Positions 2-299 of a stretch of DNA of 300 nucleotides are shown in pieces. The position numbers were made by a program, and so were the translations under genes. The notes beneath the pieces were generated by a model. It did not search any database. It had not been told where the DNA came from and saw nothing but the letters and a program-made list of their open reading frames with translations. Origin of the DNA: Escherichia coli (GTDB taxonomy: Bacteria; Pseudomonadota; Gammaproteobacteria; Enterobacterales; Enterobacteriaceae); NCBI RefSeq assembly GCF_003334335.1, contig NZ_QOWQ01000222.1, one strand, 5' to 3'. How positions within the stretch are numbered: the first letter of the stretch is position 1; each line of letters opens with the position of its first letter.

Positions 2-77
2 TGGTGGGTCGTGCAGGATTCGAACCTGCGACCAATTGATTAAAAGTCAACTGCTCTACCAACTGAGCTAACGACCC
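2..77 (-). tRNA. tRNA-Lys (anticodon UUU), complete, 76 nt with encoded CCA
   Basis: The reverse complement of 2-77 reads GGGTCGTTAGCTCAGTTGGTAGAGCAGTTGACTTTTAATCAATTGGTCGCAGGTTCGAATCCTGCACGACCCACCA. It folds by hand into a canonical cloverleaf: acceptor stem GGGUCGU/ACGACCC, D-arm GCUC-AGUUGGUA-GAGC, anticodon stem GUUGA/UCAAU with loop CUUUUAA (anticodon UUU, complement of + 42-44), variable loop UGGUC, T-arm GCAGG-UUCGAAU-CCUGC, discriminator A, then CCA. It matches the E. coli-type tRNA-Lys sequence as I recall it. Which lysT-family paralog (lysT/W/Y/Z/Q/V) cannot be told from this window, so no symbol is given. Confidence 0.95.
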
Positions 78-111
78 ATACGGGTGTTACCTGAAAGATT
101 TTTACTCGGGG

Positions 112-128
112 CCAATCTTTAAGATTGG
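112..128. other. 17-bp perfect palindrome CCAATCTT-T-AAGATTGG overlapping the orphan CCA end
   Basis: + 112-119 ccaatctt is the exact reverse complement of + 121-128 aagattgg, with a single central base (t120). As RNA it could form at most a 6-bp stem with a 5-nt loop. A third copy of the motif, aaagatt at + 94-100, can pair with aatcttt at + 114-120 instead, so two mutually exclusive pairings exist. Confidence 0.55.
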
Positions 129-143
129 TGGGTCGTGCAGGAT
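126..143 (-). repeat. orphan tRNA-Lys 3'-end fragment (tRNA positions 59-76: AUCCUGCACGACCCACCA), third copy of the tRNA 3' terminus
   Basis: + 126-143 (tggtgggtcgtgcaggat) is identical to + 2-19 and + 224-241, i.e. the last 18 nt of the tRNA including CCA. The flanking base 125 (t) also matches position 1. Identity stops abruptly at 144 (g, versus t at position 20), which is inside the T-loop, and nothing resembling the rest of a tRNA lies upstream of it. Confidence 0.85.
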
Positions 144-168
144 GACTCGCTTCGCTCGCCCTACGGGC

Positions 169-184
169 CGTTGCTGGCGCAACG
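169..184 (-). other. inverted repeat / predicted RNA hairpin, 6-bp stem and 4-nt loop
   Basis: + 169-174 cgttgc is the exact reverse complement of + 179-184 gcaacg; the loop is 175-178 tggc. It sits in the GC-rich centre of the spacer and no U-tract follows. Confidence 0.5.
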
Positions 185-197
185 TTATCCTTCACGC

Positions 198-220
198 TTA
201 ACATCTGAGTTTGATGTTAA
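198..220 (-). other. inverted repeat / predicted RNA hairpin, 8-bp stem and 7-nt loop, starting 3 nt downstream of the upstream tRNA's CCA
   Basis: + 198-205 ttaacatc is the exact reverse complement of + 213-220 gatgttaa; the loop is 206-212 tgagttt. In the minus-strand transcript this is UUAACAUC-AAACUCA-GAUGUUAA. The stem is AU-rich (6 of 8 pairs) and no U-tract follows on either strand. Confidence 0.6.
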
Positions 221-223
221 AAC

Positions 224-299
224 TGGTGGGTCGTGCAGGATTCGAACCTGCGACCAATTGATTAAAAGTCAACTGCTCTACCAACTGAGCTAACGACCC
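224..299 (-). tRNA. tRNA-Lys (anticodon UUU), complete, 76 nt with encoded CCA
   Basis: Positions 224-299 are 76/76 identical to 2-77, checked base by base, giving the same cloverleaf; the anticodon UUU is the complement of + 264-266. The 5' end is at 299 and the CCA is encoded at 224-226 (as tgg on the + strand). Only one base of 5' flank (300) is visible, so the upstream neighbour is unknown. Confidence 0.95.

Follow-up and report, generated by a model that had tools for sequence, protein, structure and literature searches.

RtT RNA, reportedly first described by Bösl and Kersten in 1991, is annotated in RefSeq as a small RNA processed from the tyrT transcript. In the tyrT-tyrV operon, the RtT core lies in a tRNA-operon spacer or trailer, contains CGUUGC/GCAACG and GCCC/GGGC hairpins, and has at its end a copied 3' terminus of the preceding tRNA, CCA included; this copy pairs with the start of the core (GGGGAAGGAU/AUCCUUCCCC). 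Comparison of E. coli K-12, which has four annotated copies, with E. coli SK1144, in which tyrT and tyrV are 33 nt apart and no RtT is annotated, indicates that the RtT repeat content of the tyrT locus varies within the species.

Lalaouna et al. reportedly described, in 2015, the 3'ETS-leuZ and metZWV spacers as tRNA-spacer sRNA sponges. These are non-tRNA parts of polycistronic tRNA precursors with a potential life after processing. 3'ETS-leuZ is said to end in a terminator, to bind Hfq and to contain a conserved single-stranded pairing site. It is released by RNase E (PMC5222698).

The lysT operon is a published case of unusual processing, with RNase P acting in the 3'-to-5' direction and RNase E being nearly dispensable (PMC4176162). 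Agrawal, Mohanty and Kushner found that the operon is expressed as one ~1100-nt transcript, from which RNase P first takes off the terminator and then splits the tRNAs 3' to 5', so that tRNA-Lys still carries the complete spacer as a 3' trailer, which has to be removed afterwards (PMC4176162). Removal of the long lysine trailers by RNase II and PNPase was proposed, with final trimming by RNase T (PMC4176162). RNase E cuts the long spacers, including the lysY-lysZ spacer, only when RNase P is inactive, thus acting as a backup, and its inactivation alone (rne-1, RNase P active) produced no new intermediates (PMC4176162). For Northern probes in the lysY-lysZ spacer, the text of that paper describes only full-length species in RNase P mutants and makes no mention of a discrete 100-150-nt RNA; neither RtT nor a stem-loop at this position appears there (PMC4176162).

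The published model leaves open the removal of the ~130-150-nt trailers on four of the five tRNA-Lys. A hairpin whose pairing is conserved 1-3 nt from the CCA offers a defined target for mutation at this step, and it adds to the RtT family a lineage-specific extra domain with real covariation, of which the core has almost none. The finding is modest, a conserved structural detail within an already catalogued spacer element; on the covarying hairpin domain, we found nothing in the literature searched on lysT-spacer sRNAs and RtT.

A hairpin next to the lysY CCA

The window, which is the whole 300-nt stretch of DNA analyzed here, is the lysY-lysZ part of the E. coli K-12 lysT tRNA operon. It is 100% identical to E. 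coli K-12 and was matched in 5,426 of 5,426 complete E. coli genomes. ARAGORN and Rfam identified two identical tRNA-Lys(UUU) genes, both on the minus strand, which is the transcribed strand, so that transcription runs from high to low window coordinates. A sequence-only reading of this DNA had the same orientation, with a 146-nt spacer after an upstream tRNA, and ARAGORN, Rfam and the K-12 annotation bear it out, the upstream tRNA being lysY and the spacer 78-223. The features, in the order of the RNA, are as follows.

224-299, minus strand: lysY, tRNA-Lys(UUU), the upstream tRNA (ARAGORN; Rfam tRNA, 79.2 bits; RefSeq K-12 annotation)
226-224, minus strand: CCA of lysY (same basis as the gene)
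78-223, minus strand: lysY-lysZ spacer, 146 nt (sequence)
221-223, minus strand: linker GUU between CCA and stem (sequence; 1-3 nt in 49 of 49 aligned homologues)
213-220, minus strand: 5' arm of the hairpin in the RNA, UUAACAUC (inverted repeat, fold, covariation)
206-212, minus strand: loop AAACUCA (sequence and length vary among homologues in the alignment)
198-205, minus strand: 3' arm of the hairpin in the RNA, GAUGUUAA (inverted repeat, fold, covariation)
144-197, minus strand: RtT-like core (Rfam RtT match; RNAalifold on 43 modules; fold, -25.5 kcal/mol)
196-187, minus strand: 5' strand of the closing helix, CGUGAAGGAU, 0-1 nt after the hairpin (RNAalifold; fold)
126-143, minus strand: pseudo 3' end, the last 18 nt of tRNA-Lys, AUCCUGCACGACCCACCA (direct repeat D2)
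112-128, minus strand: second small hairpin, CCAAUCU-UAA-AGAUUGG (inverted repeat I5; folds)
78-111, minus strand: rest of the spacer, the later 5' leader of lysZ (sequence)
2-77, minus strand: lysZ, tRNA-Lys(UUU), the downstream tRNA (ARAGORN; Rfam; RefSeq)

The hairpin is an inverted repeat (198-205/213-220) with 8-nt, 100% complementary arms that are 7 nt apart, exactly the 8-bp stem and 7-nt loop, 3 nt past the CCA, that had been read from the sequence. In the RNA, CCA (226-224) is followed by GUU (223-221), UUAACAUC (220-213), AAACUCA (212-206), GAUGUUAA (205-198) and then GCGUGAAGG. A ninth pair, U221·G197, is possible and would shorten the linker to 2 nt. Folding of the sense-strand RNA gave -6.1 kcal/mol for the hairpin (z = -3.6; equaled by 0 of 200 shuffles), and the hairpin formed an independent domain in folds of the 146-nt spacer, the 98-nt module and the 298-nt precursor. 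When the spacer was shuffled 5000 times with dinucleotides preserved, a perfect hairpin of at least 8 bp arose anywhere in 44 shuffles and no more than 5 nt from the CCA in 3.

Only two of the eight stem pairs are G-C, and the next sequence, GCGUGAAGG, lacks a U-tract. No terminator-like or promoter-like site was found on the minus (transcribed) strand of the window. On these grounds an intrinsic terminator, which the earlier reading had also discounted, and an internal promoter were both rejected. A search of 198-223 against Rfam families other than RtT returned only one meaningless match (E = 7.6). A 54-aa open reading frame at 40-204 on the minus strand starts with an AUG within the hairpin's 3' arm, crosses the core and extends into lysZ; it was rejected as a gene because it overlaps lysZ and because the AUG is missing in homologues that have GGUG or GAUA there.

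The tyrT trailer differs from the lysY trailer in carrying an unrelated hairpin, ACCACA-GCGA-UGUGGU, which starts 6 nt after the CCA, and inspection of the tyrV repeats by eye revealed no comparable hairpin. The lysV and lysQ terminator hairpins, like the lysY hairpin, begin a few nucleotides past a tRNA-Lys CCA in the same operon pair and have to be removed before final trimming (PMC4176162). These terminators are G+C-rich, possess a U-tract, lie at the operon end and are removed endonucleolytically by RNase P, whereas the lysY hairpin is A+U-rich and internal, lacks a U-tract and is followed by another structured element.

Covariation of the hairpin across Enterobacteriaceae

We scanned 100,044 species-representative genomes in one pass with the pattern CTGCACGACCCACCA-N(18-48)-GGATAACGTTGC, which yielded 85 stretches with 145 trailers, 118 of them distinct. 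Enterobacterial names stand on all but one of the scan records listed. A record titled Chryseobacterium sp. 18061 (locus L064) contains typical enterobacterial lysT-operon modules and is probably a mislabeled or contaminated assembly. The variable parts of the 118 distinct trailers were sorted by similarity scoring into three classes: class B (50 sequences), which is the type of the window and also follows lysW; class A1 (48 sequences), the lysT type; and class A2 (20 sequences), the lysZ type.

Alignment of 49 distinct class B trailers from many genera with MAFFT allowed a 10-pair helix to be scored. In this helix 92.2% of the cells were paired, compared with 35-45% in slid controls, and both-side changes were found in 8 of the 10 pairs (26 cells), the homologues being related so that cell counts exceed the number of independent events. 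None of 500 shuffles reached the observed value on any of five covariation measures. The double changes differ in kind and fall in different genera, with compensatory arm pairs UUAAUAUC/GGUAUUAA, UUAAUGUC/GACAUUAA, UCAACAU/AUGUUGA, UUAACACC/GGUGUUAA and CUAAUAUC/GAUGUUAG, and RNAalifold predicted the same helix unprompted on 43 whole modules. Its placement is constant, with a linker of 1-3 nt from the CCA to the stem and a junction of 0-1 nt from the stem to the core helix in all aligned sequences. The lysW paralogue has an identical stem with the loop GAAGACA instead of AAACUCA. Distant lineages carry unrelated hairpins in the same place with their own compensatory changes, as in Enterobacillus (TCATCTG/CAGGTGA versus TCATTTG/CAGATGA).

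The cells of the nine outer pairs were Watson-Crick in 382 cases, G·U on the tRNA-sense strand in 46 and A·C in 5, the A·C cells being would-be G·U pairs on the opposite strand; without the terminal pair, the G·U and A·C counts were 27 and 5. The transcribed strand thus tolerates G·U about nine times as often as A·C, which indicates an RNA structure rather than a DNA palindrome.

These results bear on the possibility that the element lacks an RNA function and is an inverted repeat at the DNA level: a palindrome bound by a protein, or a quasi-palindrome whose complementarity is kept by template-switch mutation and gene conversion among the operon repeats. The sequence is an AT-rich palindrome, the many repeats of the operon undergo concerted evolution, and template switching can create double changes without selection. 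However, no DNA-level mechanism predicts the excess of G·U over A·C, the arms drift from any fixed half-site consensus and yet remain complementary, and the minus strand of the window contains no promoter-like site. A DNA palindrome is disfavored by the asymmetry, and we regard a purely DNA-level origin as extremely unlikely. Judged by sequence comparison, the hairpin is clearly more than chance and an RNA structure under selection, the covariation in the 49 distinct homologues being decisive for its reality. The view that the hairpin acts at the RNA level, as part of a precursor trailer, was thereby strengthened.

The hairpin as a predicted 5' domain of an RtT-type module

Rfam identified an RtT match (RF00391) at 126-292 on the minus strand, with 54.4 bits (E = 3.7e-10) against a gathering score of 45. 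The operon contains five RtT matches, one following each tRNA-Lys; the four spacer copies scored 54.4-60 bits and the copy after lysQ 46.7 bits. RefSeq annotates the last copy of the operon as 'RtT sRNA', and annotates none for the lysY-lysZ spacer, in contrast to the stable RNA annotated for tyrT. The hairpin at 198-220 falls outside the RtT model, within a 44-nt insertion left unaligned by cmscan, indicating that the spacer is an RtT member and that the hairpin is an extra domain.

The unit that follows the CCA consists of ~28 variable nucleotides, the core GUGAAGGAUAACGUUGC..AGCAACGGCCCG.AGGGCGAG.CGAAG.CGAGUC, and an exact 18-nt copy of the tRNA-Lys 3' end. As in the tyrT-tyrV operon, the core contains CGUUGC/GCAACG and GCCC/GGGC hairpins, together with a small GAA-loop hairpin, and its start is complementary to the copied tRNA 3' end (GUGAAGGAU/AUCCUGCAC for Lys), which produces a closing helix. 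The copy in the window is part of direct repeat D2 (119-143 versus 217-241); within it, the closing helix takes its 3' strand from AUCCUGCACG, and ACCCACCA is predicted to be single-stranded. All five operon copies finish in ATCCTGCACGACCCACCA. RNAalifold on 43 modules from many genera found the core to be nearly invariant and almost devoid of covariation, which suggests constraint at the sequence level. From this architecture, the hairpin appears to be the 5' domain of an RtT-type module, composed of the hairpin, an invariant core and a tRNA-Lys 3'-end copy, that follows lysW- and lysY-type genes in Enterobacteriaceae.

Several minor features of the modules were also observed. At columns 82-90 of alignment A2 (window ~148-156), the core contains GGC-GAA-GCC with G-C to A-U changes (GACGAAGUC) in 3 of 43 modules, and this hairpin is one pair shorter in E. 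coli lysW and lysY. The 112-128 hairpin pairs the pseudo-CCA with a downstream UGG; CCA...UGG hairpins with other middles, such as CCACUUU-AAA-AGUGG and CCAAUCA-UU-AGAUUGG, occur in many genera. Downstream of lysQ (L001, 1310-1500, minus strand), two copies of the terminator AAAAAAGCGCCCUAAAGGCGCUUUUUU flank the fifth RtT copy and a pseudo tRNA-Lys 3' end, and this RtT copy includes GATTCGAACCTGC, which matches the reverse complement of the tRNA-Lys T-arm.

Trailers with and without the hairpin

We compared the post-CCA segments of the three classes with their shuffles. The class B segments had a median free energy of -7.4 kcal/mol and a median z of -4.7, with 96% at p ≤ 0.05, whereas those of classes A1 and A2 had median z values of -0.9 and -0.2 and were not above shuffles. 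The autonomous hairpin therefore belongs to one module type. Among the five modules of the lysT operon it is found only in those of lysW and lysY, and the lysT and lysZ modules, two of the four spacer modules of the E. coli operon, lack it. The notion of a hairpin after every CCA of these modules was rejected, as trailers of the lysT and lysZ types are no more structured than shuffles. The tRNAs whose trailers lack the hairpin still mature, so tRNA-Lys processing does not generally require it.

The lysT and lysZ trailers (L001, 2495-2523 and 1681-1708; classes A1 and A2) frequently contain GGUGG ~8-10 nt after the CCA. This motif is complementary to CCACC of the real and the copied tRNA 3' end; CCACC never varies, which places the pairing beyond a covariation test.

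RNA ends in the operon

The Term-seq table in the supplement of PMC7815308 (K-12, 780842-781652) places discrete in vivo 3' ends 3-4 nt past the lysZ CCA, one apparently 3 nt past the lysT CCA, and one at the mature lysQ CCA. It also contains the 3' ends valT+CC and valZ+CUC, which are RNase P products at the sites before lysW and lysY (PMC7815308). In this table the four long spacers contain no 3' end, and lysW and lysY have none assigned to them. Because the trailers of these two genes share their first 11 nt exactly and the cores are nearly the same, multi-mapping may hide ends there, making the missing Term-seq ends weak evidence. No tRNA-Lys entries were found in the TIER-seq supplements on RNase E cleavage or in the RNase E-CLASH supplements.

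Candidate roles of the hairpin in trailer processing

From the placement and conservation of the hairpin, we consider the chances about even that it is a cis-acting trailer element that fixes the detachment of the trailer from the tRNA and then caps the excised fragment. The hairpin would fold directly after the tRNA, leaving only a 1-3-nt A/U linker exposed between the mature 3' end and the compact trailer. This exposed linker would fix the point at which the trailer is detached, or at which trimming must finish. The linker could be processed by RNase E, cutting at AG|UUU, by RNase P, cutting at the 5' base of the helix, or by exonucleases, with RNase T acting last. Once the trailer is detached, the excised RtT-like fragment would carry the hairpin as its 5'-terminal stem-loop. 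If the cut is at the linker, the fragment would start with a stem-loop after 0-2 unpaired nucleotides, as do RNAs with ompA-type 5' stabilizers; those stabilizers are stronger than the lysY hairpin, and the 5' end of the lysY fragment is putative. Passages in PMC3985628 state, from references cited there, that 5'-terminal stem-loops protect RNAs from 5'-end-dependent RNase E attack. Counting against a cis-acting role, two of the four spacer modules lack the hairpin although their tRNAs mature, neither the Term-seq table nor the Northern text has a 3' end or a stable fragment from this spacer, and disruption of the stem in silico left predicted tRNA folding unchanged.

A more specific possibility is that the helix marks an RNase P site, where the enzyme would sever the trailer in one step by cutting 1-3 nt past the CCA, at the hairpin's 5' base. 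Processing of the operon depends on RNase P, which reportedly cuts 2-3 nt past the lysV CCA, just upstream of the terminator hairpin, a position comparable to that of the lysY helix (PMC4176162). However, the site lacks a G at +1, no RCCA follows the helix, a T-loop mimic is missing from the 8-10-bp stem, and A-type trailers have no helix at this position, so that a role as an RNase P mark appears quite unlikely.

The sequence-only reading had proposed a different mechanism, in which the hairpin blocks 3'-to-5' exonucleases until RNase E cuts an AU-rich stretch, and stabilizes a spacer sRNA that might act as a sponge like 3'ETS-leuZ. A match to the RNase E core motif RN|WUU, as defined in PMC5222698, is present right after the CCA (A224-G223|U222-U221-U220), RNase E can cut the lysY-lysZ spacer when RNase P is inactive (PMC4176162), and the spacer is a member of the RtT family. 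The uridines of the motif lie partly in the stem, suggesting that the hairpin could hinder rather than guide RNase E. The published data assign the separation of the tRNAs to RNase P, and the lack of new intermediates upon inactivation of RNase E with RNase P active argues against the RNase E step (PMC4176162). The first barrier that 3'-to-5' exonucleases would meet is the RtT-like core (-25.5 kcal/mol), which lies 3' of the hairpin and is reached first, not the hairpin itself (-6.1 kcal/mol, two G-C pairs); the weakness of the hairpin and its position behind the core weaken the idea of an exonuclease block.

A sponge role was likewise not upheld for the hairpin. The loop, its sole single-stranded part, is not conserved among the 49 homologues, and the minus strand of the window contains no terminator-like site that would provide a U-rich 3' end of the Hfq-bound kind, both of which make such a role unlikely. 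3'ETS-leuZ differs from the lysY spacer in these respects and in its release, as RNase E is minor here (PMC4176162). We therefore judge the combined mechanism of exonuclease block, RNase E cleavage and sponge formation improbable.

The further suggestion that the spacer is a candidate for a stable spacer-derived RNA fared in two ways. Annotation of RtT as a tyrT-derived sRNA makes it a reasonable lead, and membership of the spacer in the RtT family favors it; the Northern text of PMC4176162 reports no discrete RNA. The discrete 100-150-nt species and RNA ends that had been proposed as a check are not reported, as the Northern text mentions only full-length species and Term-seq has no ends in the spacer, with the caveat of multi-mapping. 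Overall, the earlier interpretation was partly supported.

A stable RNA also figures in a second alternative, in which the hairpin protects, as a cap, the 5' end of an RtT-like RNA that acts autonomously and in trans and is composed of the hairpin, the core and the ACCCACCA tail. Each lysW or lysY trailer would release such an RNA, and the tRNA-like 3' end would confer a separate function on it. The module is built as a stable RNA would be: a stem-loop lies 1-3 nt from the putative 5' end, the core is compact, and the 3' end is the same as that of a tRNA; a function at the sequence level could explain the near-invariant core across genera, and the RefSeq annotation of the RtT family as a processed sRNA points in the same direction. 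Against it stand the lack of a discrete spacer RNA in the text of PMC4176162 and in the Term-seq table, the lack of any entry in the RNase E cleavage and CLASH supplements searched, and the A-type modules, which have no cap. Such an RNA is, in our view, unlikely. Still more tentatively, and with quite a low probability, each lysW or lysY trailer could give rise to a ~98-nt autonomous RNA whose free ACCCACCA tail acts in trans as a decoy for readers of tRNA 3' ends. The tail would imitate the 3' end of uncharged tRNA-Lys, and the targets could be, for instance, 3' exonucleases, the CCA-adding enzyme or the stringent-response machinery. If this were true, the decoy would be made in fixed stoichiometry with tRNA-Lys.

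Predicted effects on tRNA folding

Finally, the hairpin might serve as a folding insulator or spacer that keeps the core segment GUGAAGGAU out of the T-arm of lysY; the complement of this segment, AUCCUGCAC, occurs in the real tRNA and in the pseudo copy alike. When the hairpin was deleted in silico, the predicted mispairing with the real tRNA was 0.37 instead of 0.05 and the T-stem probability 0.54 instead of 0.93, and the three trailer classes resemble one another in the spacing between CCA and core. When one arm was scrambled with the length kept, however, nothing changed (0.04 mispairing, 0.92 T-stem). Deletion thus matters in silico and stem disruption does not, which would explain a constraint on spacing but not a selected pairing, and structure-specific insulation of the tRNA was rejected. 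Equilibrium folding of unmodified tRNA is, moreover, a poor model of co-transcriptional folding. We consider a role in insulation very unlikely, and a cis-acting role in trailer detachment is the reading that we prefer.

In the minimum-free-energy fold of the whole window, the 5' end of lysY pairs with the 3' end of lysZ, which we take to be an artefact of the identical repeats. In equilibrium folds of 2-299 and 126-299 (minus strand), the 5' acceptor strand of lysY pairs not with its own 3' end but with a downstream 3'-end copy, either the pseudo end or that of lysZ, and we explain this in the same way. The 3'-end copies can in principle compete for the lysY acceptor strand.
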